The notes under the pieces: generated by a model
Told to the model about the DNA's origin: nothing
Databases searched by the model: none
Seen by the model: only the letters and a program-made list of their open reading frames with translations
Translations under genes and position numbers: made by a program
In this document: piece by piece, positions 1,254 to 20,915 of the stretch
Numbering within the stretch: position 1 is the stretch's first letter
Layout of the letters: every line of letters starts with the position of its first letter
DNA from: a virus
Taxonomy: Duplodnaviria; Caudoviricetes
Length of the DNA stretch: 27,460 nucleotides
Reading direction: 5' to 3' (one strand)
Virus record (IMG/VR): IMGVR_UViG_3300031460_000008
Span: 1 to 27,460 of that record

Positions 1254-3599
1254 CTATGTAGGATTGCCTTTTGGTTTCAGCGGCGACAATCCATCGTTGG
1301 GCTTATGCCACAAGTCAGCCACTTTGGCATTCTTGATGATCTTTTCGCCCCCGTCTTCGCCTTCATTGCTGCCCGTGCCATGCACAAGGGCAACCCGCGA
1401 TCCGTAATAATACCCGTTCGGCCCGTTTTTCCCGAAAGCGCCCAAGGTGTGCAAGGCTTCCGCCACGTCCGCCATGCTCGTTGAATTGAGTCCGACCGTG
1501 CTTGTCCCGGACAACTTCTTTTTCGTGATCGACCCATTCACCCAGTGGAAGCTGCGAGGGAGTTTGGATCCCATTTTGTAATCCCGATCGTCTTCGGATG
1601 GGATAACCCGAAGCCCCGCGTGCCCGGCTCCTAGCGCGTCCGCTTTCGCAGCAATCTCACGCACGGCTCGAACCTGATCCGGGTGAAGCCAATCGAACTT
1701 GGCCGGGAGTTCTGGGTCGTCGTTCTGCTCGACGGCCTTAGGCTGGGCATTCTCTTCCGGCATCGGGCCGATACTGAGATTGTAATGCCCTAGGTCGTCA
1801 AGGCCCGACTTGACCTTCTTAGCCAGATCCGGCCGCTGCTCGACGATTTCCTTTGCGACCCGCTGTAACTCCGTCTTGCCACCAAGGTCTTCGGCTCCCG
1901 CCAACTTGAAGTAGACATCCCCCGGTGCGAGGCTAGCATGAGCACTGGCAGTCGGATGAACCGAGCCCCCGGCGAACTGGCCGCCCTTATCCCGCGGATG
2001 TTTCGACTCCTCGAATTCGGCATCGGTCGCGAAGAACCGTCGCACATCCTCGGCGCCCGTCTGCCCCTTGGGTTGCAAGCCCTCGGCTTCCTCGGCACTG
2101 AGATCCGGCAGGTCTTCGACATCCAAGCCAGGATAGCGACTGTCCGGATCGGACGCCACGTTGCTGCGGACTTCGCCCTGCCATAGCACACCGGTGTCAA
2201 GGCGAATCTGGTCCGTCTCCGCCTCGAGCTTCTCGACTTCGGCGCGCTCGCGCTCGCTCATGGCCCACAGCGGCTCGAAACCAAAGCGGATGGATGGATC
2301 GATGTCGCCGCACTCGCTTAGCTGGATGATGTCGATCACGGTCTGCAGGGGATCGCGAAGGTGGTCCTCTTGCGCGGCGTGGATGGTGTCGTAGTAAACT
2401 CTAATTTCTCCATCGCTTGATGCATTGAGGCCGGCCGGCTGAAGCCCGGCGTATTTGACGAGCGGCTGAGACGCCACCATCGCCACTTGTTCGAATGCCT
2501 GGGCTTGCAGCTTATCTAGCGTGCCGAGATTGGCCGTGACGTTGACGAAGTCCTCGCTGTCTTTGTCAAGCGCCATGATGCCGCGGTTGTCGCGGGTTTG
2601 GTTGAACATCATCAGGCGGCCATCCAGGCCGTCACCGTTGTTGCCGAGGCCCGTATCGCCGAAGAGCGCGCTGCTACTTCCGCCCTGCAGTTTTACCTTC
2701 ATATCAGTCTTCAGCACCCACACCGTGAATGCGTGGACGATATCGGAAACGCTCTGCCGGGTCCTTATCCAGTTGTCGACATAGGGTTGCGCCATCTGCG
2801 TCAGTGACAGCCCGCCGAAGCTGTAGGCAGACTTCAGGATGTCCGGCACCTCGCGCGCCACGATGGTGAGCAACCGGCTGGCATGGACCGAGCCGCCCAT
2901 CACGTACCACGACTGCGGCTCGTACCAGTCGGGTGCGAGCGGATCGCTGGTGTTGTAGCTCTGCGGATAGACCCAAAGGGGGTCGACAGACCGAATGCCC
3001 TTCAGGGAACCGCGCTTGACCTTCTGCAGTGTAGCTGCGTCGCTGCCGTTACCGATCGGCTTCGCCCTTTCGTCGCCCTGGGCGCCGAGGTCGATGTATA
3101 GATGGCCACGGCCCATTAGTCCGTCATAGCGGACCGCATCACGGAAAGCATCTCGGACCTTGAACTTGACGAGCCCGGCCTCGATGGCCTGAATGCGGTC
3201 GGTCTTGTCGGCGTCCTGATCGATGGATGTGATCTTGATCCACCGCCGCGTCATCTCGGTGGCGGGGACGTCGGCGATCTTGCGGTATTCGGGTCGCTGC
3301 GCATACAGCGCCAGCACCGTCATCGAGATGGCAGCGCCAAAGCCACCGAGCGAAGCCCCATAGGTCTGCCCAGCCCATCCGCCCGCGCCCGAGAGCGCGT
3401 CGTCCATTGCGAGGACGGCGCCTTCCGGTACGACCCCCGGCGGCGGCACGGCGGACTTGAAGATGTCCTCGGCCGGCGGCGTACGGTTCTTGCGAGCCAG
3501 AAGCGCCACAGCTTCGTCCGACATGAACGGACGGAGCGGGGACGGTTGCTGAACGAGTTGCGGCGCGGCGACATGCGCCTTGCGCCGCTTCTTGCTCAA
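1254..3599 (-). CDS. Portal protein (DUF1073-like) with a ~255-aa C-terminal extension
   Basis: Lies directly after TerL (4-bp overlap). Portal-type motifs include QRPEYRKIAD..ATEMTRRWI, VHASRLL, AYSFGGLSL, GLQPAGLNASSDGEIRVYYD and F.FEPLWAMSE. The extension starts near ATDAEFEESKHPRDKGGQF. Confidence 0.85.
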   Translation of the reverse strand: MSKKRRKAHVAAPQLVQQPSPLRPFMSDEAVALLARKNRTPPAEDIFKSAVPPPGVVPEGAVLAMDDALSGAGGWAGQTYGASLGGFGAAISMTVLALYAQRPEYRKIADVPATEMTRRWIKITSIDQDADKTDRIQAIEAGLVKFKVRDAFRDAVRYDGLMGRGHLYIDLGAQGDERAKPIGNGSDAATLQKVKRGSLKGIRSVDPLWVYPQSYNTSDPLAPDWYEPQSWYVMGGSVHASRLLTIVAREVPDILKSAYSFGGLSLTQMAQPYVDNWIRTRQSVSDIVHAFTVWVLKTDMKVKLQGGSSSALFGDTGLGNNGDGLDGRLMMFNQTRDNRGIMALDKDSEDFVNVTANLGTLDKLQAQAFEQVAMVASQPLVKYAGLQPAGLNASSDGEIRVYYDTIHAAQEDHLRDPLQTVIDIIQLSECGDIDPSIRFGFEPLWAMSERERAEVEKLEAETDQIRLDTGVLWQGEVRSNVASDPDSRYPGLDVEDLPDLSAEEAEGLQPKGQTGAEDVRRFFATDAEFEESKHPRDKGGQFAGGSVHPTASAHASLAPGDVYFKLAGAEDLGGKTELQRVAKEIVEQRPDLAKKVKSGLDDLGHYNLSIGPMPEENAQPKAVEQNDDPELPAKFDWLHPDQVRAVREIAAKADALGAGHAGLRVIPSEDDRDYKMGSKLPRSFHWVNGSITKKKLSGTSTVGLNSTSMADVAEALHTLGAFGKNGPNGYYYGSRVALVHGTGSNEGEDGGEKIIKNAKVADLWHKPNDGLSPLKPKGNPT

Positions 3600-5221
3600 T
3601 AGGAGCGCCTCGGTTGGGAGAACCGCGCCAGCATGGCGGGGGTAATGGTAAGGGGCTCATCGCGCGGTGCGAACCGGATCATCACGGCGTCCGCGAGGTT
3701 GGGGGATCTTGTCCCGTCCGGCGTCTTGTCGATCACGATCTTGCCAACGCCGTTGACGCTATAGGTCGGTTGCGACAGCTCGGAACAGAGACGAGATCGA
3801 TGTGACAGCGCGGACGGAATCGAAATGACGTCGTCGTGCGAAACGTCCGCCCCTTCCGTCACGGCCCGGAAGGTGTTCTGAAACCGGGTCCGCAGCGACC
3901 ACCAGCTCTGCGCCTTGAGGTTGGCGAAGAAGTCCTGGTTCTTGCGGCCCTTGACGTCCTCGCGCTCGGGATGAAGCACGCCGGCCGAGCCGCGGAACGC
4001 CTCAACGCCGATCAAAGCCTCACTTCGGGCCTGTCGGGTCTCGTTGATGACCCTCGCATCGCCGCGGACGCCAGCCCCAAGGCCATCGGCATCGTAGCGG
4101 AAGCCGACATAGCTGTTGGCAGCCGCAAGACCAAAGGCCCGTTGCACCGTGCCGAAGATGTCGTCGCCCTTGCCCGACCACTCGTCCAAAGTTTCGATGA
4201 GGATCCCATGGGCACCGCAAAAAGCGTTGGTGTCCTTGCCTTCATCGGCGACATCGAGAGCGCCGACCCGCATGCCGCTAGGTGTGATACCGAGTTTGAC
4301 GTGTGCGTCGATTGATGCCTGGACCCACGCGCTCGGAATAACGACACCCTCGACCGAGGCCGAAAAGTCGATATCGAGTTCCTGAGCGATGGTGACGGGG
4401 TCGAGGATTTCGACCTGCCTGTCATACCAAGCCTGATCCTTGCGGGGGTCGTCCCGCCAATGGAAGCGGAACACCCGATCGGCAGGCCATTCCGTCACTT
4501 TGCGGTGGAAGGGTCCGCCCAATCCATTGGCGGTGCTGACGTCCATCCTGCAGTTGGTGGTCTGCGATAGAGCCTGTTCGATCAATTCGGGGTGGTCGAG
4601 AAAGGCGGCCTCATCGACAAAGAAGACCGATGTCCTGTCACCGCGACCGATGTTGTCGCCGGCCTCCCCGGTCATGATGCTGTCGGTTCGCTTGAACAGG
4701 ATGCGCATGTGAGGCGCATCGTTCTTCGGATCGAAGCCGTTGCGGAACTCGGGCGGCAGAAGCTCTATGAACTTCCTGGCCTTCCAGAACAGCGACTTTG
4801 GCGCCCCGATCTTGTCGACGTATTCCTCTTTTCGCGACCCGAAGCCGATCGCCATACCTTCGTTGAACAGGCACAGCGTGCACGATAGAGCGACCGCTAC
4901 CCACGATACACCGGACTCCCGGCTCTTCGGGGTCACGCCTGGCCGTTGATTCCGCCAACTATCAACAACCCAATCGCACCACTCGAACTGGCGAGGGAAC
5001 AGGATGAAGGGAACGACTGCAGGACGTCCGACCTCGACATTGCGGGGATCGGCTGTGCAGCCCCAGTCCGTGATGAACTGCGCTGGATTGGCGCGATAGA
5101 ACGTCCGTAGTGCCGGCAGTACCGAAGGGTCGCGGCGGATGCGGTTCAGCCGCTCGACACGGCGTTTGAAAACGGCCGAATAATCCGGGTTGCGAAAGTC
5201 GAAGCCGTCCGCGTCACTCAC
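3596..5221 (-). CDS. terL: Terminase large subunit
   Basis: Walker A-like PKSRESGVSW, Walker B FFVDEAAF, motif III VSTANG, and RNase H-like nuclease motifs GALDVADEGKD and SPNLADAV. Confidence 0.92.
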   Translation of the reverse strand: MSDADGFDFRNPDYSAVFKRRVERLNRIRRDPSVLPALRTFYRANPAQFITDWGCTADPRNVEVGRPAVVPFILFPRQFEWCDWVVDSWRNQRPGVTPKSRESGVSWVAVALSCTLCLFNEGMAIGFGSRKEEYVDKIGAPKSLFWKARKFIELLPPEFRNGFDPKNDAPHMRILFKRTDSIMTGEAGDNIGRGDRTSVFFVDEAAFLDHPELIEQALSQTTNCRMDVSTANGLGGPFHRKVTEWPADRVFRFHWRDDPRKDQAWYDRQVEILDPVTIAQELDIDFSASVEGVVIPSAWVQASIDAHVKLGITPSGMRVGALDVADEGKDTNAFCGAHGILIETLDEWSGKGDDIFGTVQRAFGLAAANSYVGFRYDADGLGAGVRGDARVINETRQARSEALIGVEAFRGSAGVLHPEREDVKGRKNQDFFANLKAQSWWSLRTRFQNTFRAVTEGADVSHDDVISIPSALSHRSRLCSELSQPTYSVNGVGKIVIDKTPDGTRSPNLADAVMIRFAPRDEPLTITPAMLARFSQPRRSY

Positions 5222-8639: not shown

Positions 8640-11307
8640 CGTTCGGGGGCGGATCTGGAGGTTTCTCAACGCGCTTCTCGAATTCGGCGCGCATCCGATT
8701 GACGACGTCTTTTCCATCCCATTTAGGGGGGATCGACCGGTTGACGGCCTCTACCCCAGACGAGATTCTGGAGGCTTTTCCTTGAGCGAGCGTAGAGCTT
8801 TTGACGCCCTGCCAGAAGTCCTGTCCTACCCCATTAAGGTGGATTCCAAGATAATAGCGCGTATCGGTCTCCCTGTGTGACGCGATACGCGCGTCCCCGA
8901 GCGAGGTGATTGCCTTTCCCACCGATTCGTTCGATGGCGCGCCGCGGTTCTCCCCTTTGTTTTCGTGCCACCACATCGTGAAGGCAGCGCAGAAGTCCGA
9001 GGTCGAGATCATCGCGTCTTGACTGAAGGAAACGCATTCGTTGACGAACCCGGCGACCAGATTGCTGTCCGCACGGATCTCCGCTCTGGTCTCCATGATT
9101 TCCGGCGTGAGAGAGAAGAAGCCCCGCATGATGGCGCGATGCAGACCTTCCAATGCCCAGTTCAACAAGCCGGATTTTTCGTCAGTCAGGATCATCTCAC
9201 TGACCTCACCGAAGCCTCTTGATTTCGCTTCCAGGGCCGCTCCGACGGGAAGGGTGTCCTTGAACTCCTGACGGCACTGAACCACGATCATTCGATTGAC
9301 GATTGCTTTGGTGGCTTCTTTGAACTGAGGTGGGTGGTTCGTCCCCCAGAATACGGGACATTGGAACCGCTTCGTGATGAGCGGACCGTTCTTGATGTTG
9401 ATCGGCACCGGGTCTCCGGTCAGGAGTGATTTAACCATCGAGGAGAACAACCAGCGCGATTGATCAAAGGCTTCGTGGAGCACCCAAGGCGCCCGCCTGA
9501 CGAAGTCCATGAGGCCATGCGTTCCGCTCACGCTGTCCAGTGCCGTTGAGATCGGGTTCTCGCTCAGAAGACCGGAGAAGACCTCCAGCACCGTGGTTTT
9601 CCCACTGTCTCCGCCCCCATAGAGGACCATCGCCTTCGATAATGCCTTTGATCGGTTTTCGATCAAAGCAACCCCGATAAGCTCTTGCAGCGTCTCTATG
9701 GTTTGCATCCGAAGCTCAGGTGTTCGGTCTGCGAACAGGTCTTCAAGAGATCTCTTCCACCACTGACAATCTGCTGAAGGGTCAAAAATGCACTCTATAC
9801 GCCATGTTGCATGATGCTCTGGCATAGGTGCCACAATGATCTTAGTCTTAGGGTCAAGCAAACCCGACCGCGTCGGTATCAGACCGTGCCTGTTCCACTC
9901 GATAAGGCCATGGTTTATGTCAGGATTCCGTAGTATCCACTGCCTGGCTTCGCTTACGATCCTGTTTGTGGAGTCTATGTTGAGCGTTCTGCAACCAATC
10001 TCTATCTCGACTTCAAGCCACTGCTTTCCAACATAGGTCGGCGCTGACCATAAGCCTCCGGTATAGTGCCAGACTTCACCCAATGTTACCAGGATGTCGT
10101 CCCCCCGGGCGCGAATCGCCTCAATGACACCTTGTCCGAGAATGACATGTTTCTGAACGTCAGCCTTCGCCTTCTTCGATCCCTTCTCGGCCTTGCGATG
10201 ATCGGACAGGGCGACGACGGAGCCGCTCCCGCCACTCTGCGCCACGGCCACGGTCTCCGCACGTTCTTCTACTTCATGCTGTTGTCTCGGCTGTATCGTC
10301 AATTCAGGATGCTTGCGGAGCCAGCTTTCACATTGTCCATGGATCGTGCGGCGCTCGCGAGCCCAATTCCATCGTGATCCGTAGTCTCCGGCAGCGATGC
10401 GGGTCGCCTCGATCACGATATCGACGATCTCTTCGATCGGCTTGCCTTGACCGAGCAGGGCCGCCGTGACCACGACCTGCGTCTCATGGATCGATGTCTC
10501 GTCGACGCCCTGATAGGTCATGGCGGCGAGCCGCTGTTCGACCTCGATCGACGGCTTGAATCCGAGCTTCGCGGCCACGGCCAGGAAGGGGTTGTCGTGC
10601 CGTGTCGGCGCTTTGCGGCTCAGTGCATCCCGCCGCGCGATCCGGGGCGAGAGCATGTCGAGCATGTCTTCGACATCGTCGACCTCATAACGCCGTTCAT
10701 AGCCACCGTTCGCGACTTCGACAGCCGTCCATTCGCCGCGTTTGGTGTTGTGGCTGCCCGGCAGCCTCATGAGCCGGCAGACGTCGGAGACCGGATCACC
10801 GCCGACGACGTCGGCCAAGAGGGCGTTGATACGTTCCGCCCGCTCGATGCTGAGATCGTCGGCTTGGATCGACTCTTTCAGCAGCCAGTAGCAATGCAGG
10901 CCGTGTCCCGACCGTACCACCACGGACGGCGGGCAAGGCAACTCGCGTAGCACCTTGAACACGTCTTCGAGCGGGATCGCGATCGACTTCTCATCGATGT
11001 CGGCGTGGAATAGCGCGATCTCCGCCACGCTGCGTTTGTGGCGCACAGAGCCCTTGGGCCTCTCCGGCTGGGCATTCTCGACCAGTGTCGCGACACAGAA
11101 GAAGAGCCCGCGGCCTGGTCTGTCCCACCGCGCCACGAAGGACGCGACGTCGGCCGGGTCGCGGGACATGATACGGCGTTCGCCTACCTGATCGGAGGCG
11201 TCGCGCTCGTTAGGAAGCGAGCACAGGAAGATCGGTTGCTCCGTCGAGGGTCCGAAGACCCCCGACAGGAATTCGATCGCTTGCTTGAATTGCTCGCCTT
11301 GCGTCAA
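8566..11307 (-). CDS. Primase-helicase: RepB'/AEP-type primase + D5_N + SF3 helicase (P4 alpha / D5-like)
   Basis: AEP motifs HADID, SGHGLHCYW and RLMRLPGSHNTK; D5_N-like IPTRSGLLD; Walker A GGGDSGKTT; WGTNHPPQF; AIVNRMIVV. Confidence 0.9.
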   Translation of the reverse strand: MTQGEQFKQAIEFLSGVFGPSTEQPIFLCSLPNERDASDQVGERRIMSRDPADVASFVARWDRPGRGLFFCVATLVENAQPERPKGSVRHKRSVAEIALFHADIDEKSIAIPLEDVFKVLRELPCPPSVVVRSGHGLHCYWLLKESIQADDLSIERAERINALLADVVGGDPVSDVCRLMRLPGSHNTKRGEWTAVEVANGGYERRYEVDDVEDMLDMLSPRIARRDALSRKAPTRHDNPFLAVAAKLGFKPSIEVEQRLAAMTYQGVDETSIHETQVVVTAALLGQGKPIEEIVDIVIEATRIAAGDYGSRWNWARERRTIHGQCESWLRKHPELTIQPRQQHEVEERAETVAVAQSGGSGSVVALSDHRKAEKGSKKAKADVQKHVILGQGVIEAIRARGDDILVTLGEVWHYTGGLWSAPTYVGKQWLEVEIEIGCRTLNIDSTNRIVSEARQWILRNPDINHGLIEWNRHGLIPTRSGLLDPKTKIIVAPMPEHHATWRIECIFDPSADCQWWKRSLEDLFADRTPELRMQTIETLQELIGVALIENRSKALSKAMVLYGGGDSGKTTVLEVFSGLLSENPISTALDSVSGTHGLMDFVRRAPWVLHEAFDQSRWLFSSMVKSLLTGDPVPINIKNGPLITKRFQCPVFWGTNHPPQFKEATKAIVNRMIVVQCRQEFKDTLPVGAALEAKSRGFGEVSEMILTDEKSGLLNWALEGLHRAIMRGFFSLTPEIMETRAEIRADSNLVAGFVNECVSFSQDAMISTSDFCAAFTMWWHENKGENRGAPSNESVGKAITSLGDARIASHRETDTRYYLGIHLNGVGQDFWQGVKSSTLAQGKASRISSGVEAVNRSIPPKWDGKDVVNRMRAEFEKRVEKPPDPPPNAYDSSYDSAVDMTVATVISGETQF

Positions 11308-14788: not shown

Positions 14789-15232
14789 CTAGGCCACCGC
14801 AGCCAGCTTGGTGTTGCCCCTGCCGAGCCCGATGGACTTCGCTAGCTCGGTGCGCTTGGCGGAGTAGTTCGCCGCCACCATCGGATATTCTGTCGGAAGG
14901 CCCCACTTGGTCCGATAGTCCGCAGGCGTCATGCCGAGTGTGCCGAGATGCCGCTTCAGCGACTTGAACCGCAGTCCATCGTCGAGGCAGATGAGGTAGT
15001 CCGGCGTGACCGAAGCCTTGATCGATACCGCCGGCTTTAGCGGTTCGGCCAGCGTCTTCGCGGGTTCCGGACGGCCGATGTCCACGATGGCGTGATAGAC
15101 GCTGCGGATGAGCCCCGGAAGAGCCTCGGCCGGCACGCTGTTGTTGCCGATGTAGCCGACCACGACTTCCTTCGTGAAGAACACGGCTTCGTTATGGTGC
15201 AGGGGTTCCATTTGTTTTTCCTCGATGTTCAT
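14789..15232 (-). CDS. mucR: MucR/Ros family nucleoid-associated regulator (phage-borne)
   Basis: YIGNNSVPAEALPGLIRSVY, KPAVSIKASVTPDYLICLDDGLRFKSLKRHL and YRTKWGLPTEYPMVAANYS..R..LAKSIGLGR. Confidence 0.92.
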   Translation of the reverse strand: MNIEEKQMEPLHHNEAVFFTKEVVVGYIGNNSVPAEALPGLIRSVYHAIVDIGRPEPAKTLAEPLKPAVSIKASVTPDYLICLDDGLRFKSLKRHLGTLGMTPADYRTKWGLPTEYPMVAANYSAKRTELAKSIGLGRGNTKLAAVA

Positions 15233-16188: not shown

Positions 16189-16850
16189 CACTCGGGACCC
16201 ATGCCGTCGCCGCCGGCCTGCCGACGCCAACCAAGATCCCATGAGGCCCGGCGGTTATCGCCGAACGGGAACGGGTTTCTGATGATCGGCACATCATCCT
16301 TCACGGCCTGCCGTCCAAGCGACTCGGCGCCACTCAGGTCCACGTCCGGCACGGGCGGGCGCTCCTTGATCGCTGGCGGCGGTCCGTCCGGCCTCGACGG
16401 TGCCGCCGGCTTGTTCACCACGTCGGCGGCCTCAACGGTGCCGCTGGCGTTACGCGTCAGCCTGACTGGCACGCCACCCGCTTCCACGATGATCGAACCG
16501 TTCGCGGGCACAAATGCTTTCAGGGCTTGGACAACCTGATCCTTGGCCGTGATATCGACCGCCATCAGGCCGACCGCTCGGAACAGCGGTGGCTCAGGCA
16601 ACATGCCCAGCTCGGACAGGTACATATCGGAGAGTGCTACATCCTCCTGATAGTCGGACGGCTTCATCGCGCGGACCTTGACGCAGTACGCGATGATTTT
16701 TGGTATGAAACCGGTCGACTTCGCTTCCGCCATGATGAGCTTTTCGTCGTCGGTTGCTTGCTTCTTGACCTTTCGGATGCGCTCGACCCGCTCGACATAG
16801 GATCGAAGCTGTTCGCCGCTTACGGTGTTCCTGCCGATTGCATCACTCAT
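16188..16850 (-). CDS. GapR (DUF2312)-like domain fused to a C-terminal RMF-like motif
   Basis: EQLRSYVERVERI...AEAKSTGF..KII...VRAM...MYLSELGM (GapR-like); GRQAVKDDVPIIRNPFPFGDNRRASWDLGWRR (Rmf/CrpP-like). Confidence 0.8.
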   Translation of the reverse strand: MSDAIGRNTVSGEQLRSYVERVERIRKVKKQATDDEKLIMAEAKSTGFIPKIIAYCVKVRAMKPSDYQEDVALSDMYLSELGMLPEPPLFRAVGLMAVDITAKDQVVQALKAFVPANGSIIVEAGGVPVRLTRNASGTVEAADVVNKPAAPSRPDGPPPAIKERPPVPDVDLSGAESLGRQAVKDDVPIIRNPFPFGDNRRASWDLGWRRQAGGDGMGPE

Positions 16851-18913: not shown

Positions 18914-19158
18914 CAGAACATCTCCGATGTCAGAGCTTCGGGATCGTCGAGCGACAGATCGGGCCGCGTCCGAAACCTGTCCTCGCTATCTGTCGGCATC
19001 ACCTGGACACCGGAACCGATGCTGTGAGCAGACGGCCGATCGTCCGCGAATGCGTCAGGCAGCCAGCCAGCGCCCTTGCAAGCGGAGCACGGCCTTAATC
19101 TCCGCGAGCCATAGGCTTGGAGCTTGCCGGAACCGCCGCAGGATCGGCAGGGGGTCAT
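18913..19158 (-). CDS. Small protein with DnaJ-like CxxCxGxG zinc-finger repeats
   Basis: CRSCGGSG and CSACKGAG; ATG overlaps the cro stop. Confidence 0.6.
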   Translation of the reverse strand: MTPCRSCGGSGKLQAYGSRRLRPCSACKGAGWLPDAFADDRPSAHSIGSGVQVMPTDSEDRFRTRPDLSLDDPEALTSEMF

Positions 19159-19459: not shown

Positions 19460-19473
19460 GACATCATCGGAGG

Positions 19474-20157
19474 ATGGAAGAGCCCTTTGAACGATTAGCC
19501 CGCGCCAGGCGCGATGCAGGATTTGAAGATGCGACCTTCGCTGCCCGGCGTTTCGGCTGGAACGAGAATAGCTATCGCAGCCACGAAAATGGCATGCGCG
19601 GCCTGCGGCGCGACGTAGCCGAGCGGTACGCCAAGGCCTTCCGGGTCAATGCAGGCTGGCTTCTCACCGGCGACATGATGGACCCCTCCCGATCCACCAT
19701 CCCCATCATGGGCCGCATCGGTGCCGGAGCCGAGATCGACGCGGGCGTGGAACAGGTGCCGCCCGAGGGCTATTACAACGCCGAGGCCGTGATCCCGTTG
19801 CCGCCCTACGCCATCGGCTTCGAGGTGGTCGGCGATTCCATGATGCCGCGTTACGGTCCCGGCGACGTGGTGGTCTGCCCTCGGGATGGCACGCCGTTTG
19901 AGCGCATTCCGGACGGCGAGGAGGCGGCGGTGCTCACCGCAGACGGTCGGCGTTTCCTGAAGTTAGCCCTGCGGACCGCCGTGCCGAACATCTACAATCT
20001 GATCAGCGTCAACGCCACGGCGTCGCCGATCCTCGGCGTCGAACTCACGTGGGCCGCAGACGTGCTGACCGTCGTGCGGGCGCGACAGTGGAGCCGTGTG
20101 ACGCATGACGATCGACGGCGGCTCGGCGCCAAGGTAGCGGCGAAGCGGGGCGGGTGA
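19474..20157 (+). CDS. cI: CI-like repressor (XRE HTH + S24 autopeptidase)
   Basis: ERLARARRDAGF...SYRSHENGMR...WLLTG HTH; cleavage-site-like IGAG; catalytic Ser in GDSM; Lys in FLK. ATG at 19474. Confidence 0.92.
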   Translation: MEEPFERLARARRDAGFEDATFAARRFGWNENSYRSHENGMRGLRRDVAERYAKAFRVNAGWLLTGDMMDPSRSTIPIMGRIGAGAEIDAGVEQVPPEGYYNAEAVIPLPPYAIGFEVVGDSMMPRYGPGDVVVCPRDGTPFERIPDGEEAAVLTADGRRFLKLALRTAVPNIYNLISVNATASPILGVELTWAADVLTVVRARQWSRVTHDDRRRLGAKVAAKRGG

Positions 20158-20195
20158 CGGCCGGCAATCGGCAGACTATATAGAGGGGAGCACTC

Positions 20196-20354
20196 GTGAC
20201 ACAGGTCGAGCTATGGTCAGCCGCGAAGGAACCGCCCAAACCACCTCCGAAACCACCGCCGAAGCCGTCGCCGGAAAGGAAATCCGATCCCCGGCCGGGA
20301 CAGGCGAACGATGGTCGGCCGCCGGACCCGAAGCCCCCGAGAGACAAACGATGA
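20196..20354 (+). CDS. 52-aa Pro/Lys-rich peptide (not in the ORF track)
   Basis: GTG preceded by AGAGGGGAG; MTQVELWSAAKEPPKPPPKPPPKPSPERKSDPRPGQANDGRPPDPKPPRDKR; its stop overlaps the next ATG (ATGA, 20351-20354). Confidence 0.6.
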   Translation: MTQVELWSAAKEPPKPPPKPPPKPSPERKSDPRPGQANDGRPPDPKPPRDKR

Positions 20355-20860
20355 CGCCGGAACTGGCGTTGGAAATGAGGCTTCTCCGAAACCTCCGCTA
20401 CCACGAGGATCGGCAAGGGCACTTCGACGCCTGGAACCGATGGATCAACTTCGCAGTGCTGGCGCTTGGCAGCACGGCTGCCGCAACCGCCCTTTCGACA
20501 CATCCGCATGTCGCCGTTTATGGCGGCGCTCTTGCAGCTGCGGCGGGCGCAGCGCAGCTCGTCTTCGACTTCGGCGGCAAGGCCCGGACCCACCTGGAAC
20601 TGCGAAGGTCGTTTGCTCGCCTCTACGCGAAGTCCGTCCAGGCTGGCGCCGACGTCGAGGCACTGCATGCCGAGATGACGGGCCTCTATGCCGACGAACC
20701 GGAGCTGTTTCACGCCGTCAATGCCATGGCTTACAATGCGGCTGAACTCTCCTACGGGCGGTCACGAGATGAACTCTTGAAGGTTGCACCCTGGCGCGCC
20801 GTGCTGCGGCATTACCTCCGGTTCGATCCCGCTAACTTCCCGGACGTGAAGCCGGCGTAG
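20351..20860 (+). CDS. SLATT-like two-TM protein
   Basis: Helix (RNLRYH...F..W), TM1 WINFAVLALGSTAAATAL, TM2 VAVYGGALAAAAGAAQLVFDF, then ARTHLELRRSFARL. True start most likely 20351 rather than 20213. Confidence 0.7.
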   Translation: MTPELALEMRLLRNLRYHEDRQGHFDAWNRWINFAVLALGSTAAATALSTHPHVAVYGGALAAAAGAAQLVFDFGGKARTHLELRRSFARLYAKSVQAGADVEALHAEMTGLYADEPELFHAVNAMAYNAAELSYGRSRDELLKVAPWRAVLRHYLRFDPANFPDVKPA

Positions 20861-20889
20861 CCGCTCACCCTACCCAGCTCGCTTTCCAA

Positions 20890-20915
20890 GCTCGGTTCGA
20901 GCCGGGCATTTTTTT
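20890..20915 (+). terminator. Intrinsic terminator after the SLATT-like gene
   Basis: GCTCGGT-TCGA-GCCGGGC hairpin (with G-U pairs) followed by ATTTTTTT. Confidence 0.7.

Follow-up and report, generated by a model that had tools for sequence, protein, structure and literature searches.

The window, i.e., the whole stretch of 27,460 nucleotides of phage DNA analyzed here, has profile matches in Pfam and PHROGs to a portal protein, a terminase, a primase, an integrase and a cI/cro switch. Behind the cI-like repressor lie two overlapping genes, one for a proline-rich peptide and one for a putative two-helix membrane protein (Table 1). Other loci with which the window was compared carry numbers prefixed with L. 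In L001 and L023 the same cassette follows repressors unrelated to that of the window; in L071, a cI 80% identical to that of the window precedes two other genes, one for a different membrane protein and one metallopeptidase-like.

Table 1. Coordinates of the cassette and flanking features in the window
Feature	Position	Strand	Basis
cI-like repressor (HTH + S24 peptidase), context gene	19465..20157	+	Pfam PF00717, E = 3e-7; phrog_4, E = 5e-18
-10-like CTATAT(A), possible cassette promoter	20176..20182	+	kept in L001 and L023; absent from L071
Shine-Dalgarno-like AGGGGAG for the peptide GTG	20184..20190	+	sequence; GGGAG kept in L001 and L023
52-aa Pro-rich basic peptide gene, out-of-frame overlap with membrane gene	20196..20354	+	conserved upstream ORF
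215-aa SLATT-like two-helix membrane protein, likely main product	20213..20860	+	conserved ATG; phrog_11791; SLATT_4
C-terminal motif PPDPKPP (family pattern [GD]-x-[RK]-[QPN]-P)	20319..20339	+	pattern count, alignment
Possible second coupled start (ATGA, 20351-20354), giving a 169-aa short form	20351..20860	+	sub-clade specific
Predicted membrane segment 1 (residues 76-94 of 215-aa form)	20438..20494	+	Kyte-Doolittle 1.17; in helical hairpin of model
Predicted membrane segment 2 (residues 100-118 of 215-aa form)	20510..20566	+	Kyte-Doolittle 1.65
Intrinsic-terminator-like hairpin + T-run, end of cI cargo slot	20890..20915	+	sequence scan; near-identical in L023 and L071

The Slot behind cI

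Since L071 carries other cargo behind its cI, and L001 and L023 have the same cassette behind unrelated repressors, we regard the position after cI as a swappable cargo site. The initial annotation had assigned the pair to a lysogen-expressed "rexAB position". That description suits the cargo slot of the window, but it is not a trait of the family. A scan of the two closest ORFs on either side at 45 other loci showed a repressor-type gene at 11, in every case downstream and in 10 on the opposite strand, i.e., convergent. A co-directional pair directly behind cI was seen in the window, L001, L023 and phage TC7, and at none of the 45 other loci scanned. Six loci of the scan had Mu-like surroundings, and in BcepMu and phiE255 the cassette lies in the repressor operon.

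The promoter, judged by its conservation, is weaker than first claimed. GTGACG (20154-20159), a 17-nucleotide spacer and TATATA (20177-20182) are all present, but they were missing from a consensus promoter scan, and L001 and L023 retain not the -35 element but only the -10-like CTATAT, which there sits behind repressors unrelated to the window's cI. A transcript starting about 6-7 nucleotides after this element would begin within the ribosome-binding site. The latter, described earlier as strong, is indeed present, with its core kept in L001 and L023. The hairpin and T-run of the proposed terminator were also found, but because cassette-less L071 (same cI, different cargo) has them too, the terminator belongs to the phage backbone.

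The alternative cargo of L071 occupies positions 3194-4094 of that locus, in the same post-cI slot, and its peptidase-like product has an HExxH motif; an HExxH peptidase gene of the same type follows the cassette in L001 (3521-4024). Elsewhere in the window, the minus strand encodes homologues of the alphaproteobacterial nucleoid or regulatory proteins MucR/Ros (14792-15232, PF05443) and GapR (GapR-like, 16191-16850, PF10073), and, after cro, a small zinc-finger ORF (18916-19158) with a sub-threshold Anti-TRAP match (E = 9e-6).

A Proline-Rich Peptide Is Paired with the Membrane Gene

The hidden peptide gene of the initial annotation proved to be conserved, and always to accompany this membrane protein family. 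The window peptide starts with GTG, contains 17 prolines and no cysteine, and has a net charge of +5; of the window's 195 ORFs with 30-80 codons, it alone has at least 25% proline. This low-complexity sequence has no family match in Pfam, PHROGs, NCBIfam or PADLOC, and no antitoxin-type folded DNA-binding domain was found in it with these collections. None of the peptides had a hydrophobic 12-residue stretch above 1.0, except for a doubtful pick at L060.

From 57 distinct loci we removed four with a low score or short flank, L053 (no candidate) and four near-copies, leaving 48. An ORF with at least 20% proline in its last 25 residues, ending 12-130 nucleotides upstream of the membrane core, was present at 39 of the 48, compared with 93 of 1,451 control positions. 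With L053 included, the Pro-rich small ORFs predicted to lie upstream of homologues were therefore found at 39 of 49 non-redundant loci. No clear peptide was seen at L053, L060 or L061. Among 18 held-out loci, which included BcepMu, phiE255, TC7 and plasmids, 15 scored positive at 16% proline and 14 at 20%; Pro-rich frames were visible by eye in the three misses. Relative to the membrane gene, each of the three possible frames is used, by 39, 7 and 2 of the 48 peptides.

The pairing was also recovered starting from the peptide. A pattern search of viral contigs for two copies of GxRQP yielded 24 matches, nine of which were small motif-repeat ORFs; all nine directly precede this membrane gene, at least two of them at loci already known. 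Of the remaining 15, eight had out-of-frame spacing and the rest resembled chance matches, one of them at a contig end. A query of viral contigs with the peptide itself gave nothing that tblastn confirmed.

Substitutions in the overlap fall mainly on third positions of the peptide frame, while the membrane frame drifts non-synonymously, which argues for selection on the peptide. Between the window and L001, 13 of 18 differences are at peptide third positions (8 of 16 between the window and L023), and the overlap codons of the former pair show 11 synonymous and 5 non-synonymous changes in the peptide frame, versus 2 and 14 in the membrane frame. We rejected the idea that the peptide ORF is a mere shadow of the membrane extension, because the ORF is retained even where the membrane frame is closed, and because of this selection. 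Many temperate phages and bacteria that are unrelated to one another have this pairing, and on comparative sequence grounds the genes for the Pro-rich peptide and the SLATT-like membrane protein form a conserved two-gene cassette among the accessory genes of temperate phages.

Gene callers usually miss the peptide partner. Upstream of BcepMu gp19, and overlapping its start, is an unannotated gene for a 62-codon Pro-containing peptide (L087:1814-2002; BcepMu NC_005882, ~10494-10682), the phiE255 counterpart of which is annotated as gp48. In the database proteins P0069 and P0021 (residues 1-60) the peptide is fused in frame to the membrane domain, although these are single-contig records in which a sequencing frameshift is possible; a search for longer fused forms (430-2000 residues) found none, which is weak evidence.

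Motifs and Bodies of the Peptides

Of the 48 peptides, 31 contain the pattern [GD]-x-[RK]-[QPN]-P, against 2.2 in shuffles, a count made in the very peptides from which the pattern was derived. It is absent from the other 17, and the motif is wholly changed in beta- and gammaproteobacterial clades; clade-specific forms are GxRQP, GPRPP and PPDP[KR]PP. Along the membrane-protein tree, the motif type changed 10 times compared with 30 after shuffling, although this was a quick tree and kinship alone can explain the difference. Ten peptides carry two or three copies, the distance of the motif from the stop varies from 2 to 27 residues, and a script found eight loci with a second, tandem motif-bearing peptide gene upstream. 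The unstructured bodies differ greatly in make-up, being Pro-rich, Glu/Arg-rich with the short C-terminal motif retained (L003-L005) or Lys/Ala-rich (L025-L027, L031). Taken together, the repeated motifs, varied bodies, tandem genes and unfixed relative frames suggest that the product acts in trans on the membrane protein.

In L025, L026, L027 and L031 the Lys/Ala-rich, histone-tail-like peptide is encoded by a second gene directly upstream of the Pro-rich one; this second peptide, too, terminates in GPRP, and its stop codon falls where the following peptide gene begins. Uninterrupted stretches of at least 19-20 prolines occur in the peptide frames of L081 and L083, ahead of the membrane gene. 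At 14 loci (L002, L003, L006, L009, L011, L028, L030, L048, L050, L062, L063, L066, L067 and L069) the DNA 40-75 nucleotides upstream of the peptide start holds a strong G+C hairpin and, after it, a linker rich in A and C; often, CCCCTC is also present and could base-pair with the Shine-Dalgarno sequence. No such hairpin occurs in the window. These hairpins are possible 5' stabilizers or elements of translational control.

The Membrane Gene Probably Starts within the Peptide Gene

In the window, the starts of the peptide and membrane genes are 17 nucleotides apart, and the genes have about 46 codons in common, read in different frames. The 215-residue form thus has a low-complexity N-terminal extension of 46 residues that is encoded by the same DNA as the peptide. 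It had been proposed that the 169-residue product was the protein and that the 215-residue call merely masked the peptide. We rejected the view that the longer call is an artefact, because the start that is conserved is the ATG at 20213, retained in 15 of 16 peptide genes that bear a tryptophan among their first 14 codons. In these 16, the base preceding TGG is A in 15 and T in one (background frequency of A at third positions, 0.235), and the A creates an ATG in the membrane frame, 11-29 nucleotides after the peptide start. Peptides of the separated class are mostly without an early tryptophan, so the most plausible view is that conservation of the ATG brings this residue along as a by-product.

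All 16 Trp-bearing loci had a membrane frame open through the peptide; of the remaining 23 loci in the same frame, only 10 did (Fisher P = 0.0003, with loci that are not fully independent and with L069 perhaps a chance member). We used this empirical contrast because a null model based on synonymous recoding was too low, with nine open frames observed in the class lacking tryptophan against 4.6 expected. At the junction, 13 of 15 nested loci have no ATG, GTG or TTG, leaving the upstream ATG as their only standard start. The conserved ATG, the open frame and the missing junction starts together indicate that the 215-residue ORF is probably real. In addition, at least 40 residues, rich in Ala, Ser, Thr, Gly and Glu, precede the core in 114 of the 169 database proteins that could be anchored (of 191). 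The 215-codon frame is therefore probably the true gene, and both it and the peptide frame are probably translated. The ATGA overlap into the 169-residue ORF is present, as had been claimed, but it is limited to the sub-clade of the window, where it may give a second, short form; an ATG at the junction occurs in only two of the 15 nested loci.

A Distantly SLATT-Like Protein

The membrane protein matches phrog_11791, of unknown function (E = 7e-24). Its proposed likeness to SLATT proteins gains support from matches to SLATT_4 (18.3 bits, E = 0.0016) and SLATT_1 (17 bits) in NCBIfam, but these lie far below the curated cut-offs of 55 and 41 bits. Of 150 family members, 66 match SLATT_4 at E ≤ 0.01, while Pfam gave no SLATT match at E ≤ 0.001 and no match to DUF6338 (0/150). 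The nearest named cluster in the ESM Atlas is a SLATT protein (0.94). A profile search returned 2,260 clusters at 50% identity (E ≤ 0.001), a large family that is carried unnamed in databases; alphaproteobacteria such as Methylobacterium hold close relatives of the window gene.

Both membrane segments are only moderately hydrophobic. AlphaFold2 modelled the 169-residue form as a helical hairpin followed by C-terminal helices (pLDDT 97), with almost no periplasmic loop. The two segments and the modelled hairpin agree with the SLATT-type architecture, i.e., two to three helices with a cytoplasmic helical core. In searches of the PDB, Foldseek gave no match at E ≤ 0.001, the best VIA hits (Z 7.7) were generic helical hairpins, and a sequence search of PDB chains gave no match. 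Of the nearly invariant residues (Y17, H18, R21, G40, H81, E116, A127 and N129), most are polar and lie beyond the hydrophobic segments. The protein looks like a distant SLATT-type effector, one that scores below the family cut-offs and for which no enzyme partner was found. A complex prediction with two membrane protein copies and peptide residues 20-52 scored 0.01, in a run in which the controls did not fold either.

Comparison with Known Systems

Like the SLATT effectors of CBASS and DRT10/UG17, the cassette protein is a two-helix membrane protein of about 170 residues, and a repetitive partner molecule is encoded next door (PMC9226505; PMC12632851; 10.64898/2026.04.29.721553). Our cassette differs in that its partner is a ribosomally synthesized peptide and its genes can be nested, as well as in the low family scores. 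No cyclase, reverse transcriptase or non-coding RNA partner was found. Among 146 neighbors compared with PHROGs, 58 of them also with Pfam, in flanks of 1.5-4 kb, there was no SMODS/CD-NTase, SLOG, Nudix or reverse transcriptase gene. The closest published gene arrangement, as far as the available literature goes, is a Pseudomonas stutzeri DUF6338 operon, in which three Pro-rich small proteins, detected by mass spectrometry and of unknown function, are encoded with a conserved protein (PMC10433244). By comparison, the cassette peptide lies upstream, often in an out-of-frame overlap, and none of 150 family members matches DUF6338.

PANGU likewise has a small basic partner that controls a toxic effector in abortive infection, but that partner is a folded nucleoid-associated protein, the toxin is an enzyme, and SLATT is only an accessory gene (10.64898/2026.04.06.716658). 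In type II toxin-antitoxin systems, too, a small gene lies upstream of another and is tightly coupled to it; unlike them, the cassette encodes a peptide with no match to a folded DNA-binding domain. Nested Rz/Rz1 spanin genes, as annotated in BcepMu, place a Pro-rich ORF out of frame within a membrane-protein gene. However, the peptide here has no signal or lipoprotein segment, the overlap covers a dispensable N-terminal extension, and the window cassette lies outside the lysis cassette. The lambda rexAB genes also form a pair in the lysogen-expressed slot behind cI, with a soluble partner and a membrane protein. RexB has four membrane helices, whereas the cassette protein has two; its partner is a 52-residue unstructured peptide, its position is not fixed, and no match to the RexA or RexB families was obtained with Pfam, PHROGs, NCBIfam or PADLOC. 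By these comparisons of sequence and arrangement, the cassette is not rexAB, a spanin, or a CBASS or DRT module. If the mechanism proposed below holds, it would resemble both ligand-gated two-helix abortive-infection effectors and toxin-antitoxin pairs.

How Might the Peptide Act?

SLATT proteins have been described as predicted pore effectors (PMC9226505). Our preferred reading, to which we give slightly less than an even chance, is that the basic Pro-rich peptide binds the predicted SLATT-like pore and holds it shut, and that its loss on infection would result in abortive infection. The unstructured peptide would turn over rapidly, and its motif would bind the conserved polar cytoplasmic face of the oligomer (N-x-x-Y-H-x-x-R, H81, E116 and N129). 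On infection by another phage the peptide would be lost, the pore would open and the infection would be aborted; nesting would tie the membrane gene to its antidote. The pairing, the selection on the peptide, the SLATT likeness and the prophage cargo positions favor this reading; the low SLATT scores, the moderate hydrophobicity of the helices, the loci in ordinary chromosomal surroundings, the scarcity of defence genes among the neighbors scanned, the peptides that lack the motif and the loci with no clear peptide weigh against it. A broader proposal, which we advance with more reserve, is that such cassettes form a widespread, minimal anti-phage class, in which the SLATT-type pore would have as its ligand not a nucleotide second messenger but an unstructured, ribosomally synthesized peptide with multivalent repeats. 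In the entangled branch of this class, the antidote would come from the same 46 codons as the effector N terminus, so that neither could be expressed or lost alone.

Sequence alone is compatible with either an inhibiting or an activating peptide. In DRT10, neutralization of an oligomeric SLATT protein by a repeat ligand has been proposed as a speculation (PMC12632851), while SLATT-dependent toxicity on accumulation of the ligand points to activation (10.64898/2026.04.29.721553). The peptide might accordingly be an activator or sensor parked on DNA, RNA or ribosomes, whose release or accumulation during infection opens the pore, much as the PANGU nucleoid protein is released to activate its effector (10.64898/2026.04.06.716658). 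The net basic charge of 42 of the 48 peptides would suit such a role, as would the histone-tail-like second peptides with the same motif. We nevertheless consider it unlikely: the peptides of L008, L016, L028, L030 and L055 are net acidic, and the extra motif copies and operon-first tandem peptide genes would better fit an excess of antidote.

Somewhat less probable still, in our estimation, is that the peptide ORF acts only in cis, as a translational coupler or a stalling leader (mok/hok-like or EF-P-dependent) that sets the output of membrane protein. The peptide ORF is always upstream and ends near the membrane core, starts 11-29 nucleotides apart must compete for ribosomes, 5' hairpins occur at many loci, and 41 of the 48 peptides contain PP. 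However, only 22 contain PPP, and a trans-acting product would account for repeats 2-27 residues from the stop, separate tandem genes and the use of all three frames. The EF-P-dependent polyproline gate suggested in the initial annotation is unlikely to be general across the family, given the PPP count and the Glu/Arg-rich bodies on which L003-L005 carry the motif.

SieB/Esc-like systems provide a model for a different kind of pair, conferring non-lethal superinfection exclusion or modifying the envelope. Here the membrane protein would block DNA entry or a host membrane process, tuned by the peptide or by long and short isoforms. The post-cI position in the window, L001, L023 and TC7, the repressor operons of BcepMu and phiE255 and the possible dual start in the window's sub-clade are consistent with this, but the model has almost no periplasmic loop, the conserved residues are cytoplasmic and polar, and 13 of 15 nested loci have no junction ATG; we rate it as improbable.

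Novelty and Distribution

Literature searches yielded no description of the peptide/SLATT-like pair or of its nesting, although supplements of preprints (candidate lists from defence screens) may list members. The peptide-plus-SLATT-like cassette is real, widespread and, in the literature searched, undescribed, and has an unusual, probably dual-coding form. How SLATT effectors are switched is called an open question in the DRT10 papers (PMC12632851; 10.64898/2026.04.29.721553). If the peptide gates the pore, the cassette offers a two-component system of less than 700 bp in which to study that switch and would be a natural case of out-of-frame gene nesting that ties an effector to its regulator. 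It is directly testable, because the cultured phages TC7, BcepMu and phiE255 carry it.

The least probable alternative is that the cassette has no role in defence, being a stress or housekeeping membrane module or a prophage addiction module, as some loci among ordinary genes (chromosomal surroundings at L013, L054, L057, L064 and L065) and the analogous DUF6338 peptides, which have no known role although normally growing cells express them well (PMC10433244), might suggest; against it are the predominance of phage contexts and a patchy distribution (5/146, 10/401, 5/401, 8/300 and 11/401 genomes). A reading of the peptide as a RiPP precursor was rejected, as there was no modifying enzyme among the scanned neighbors. 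The 146 neighbors included no recognizable defence gene besides one host nuclease inhibitor and several endonucleases. On a plasmid of Rhizobium sp. C104 (L091:427-2498), the cassette lies directly downstream of a caspase-family gene, and its membrane gene is unannotated in the collection searched.
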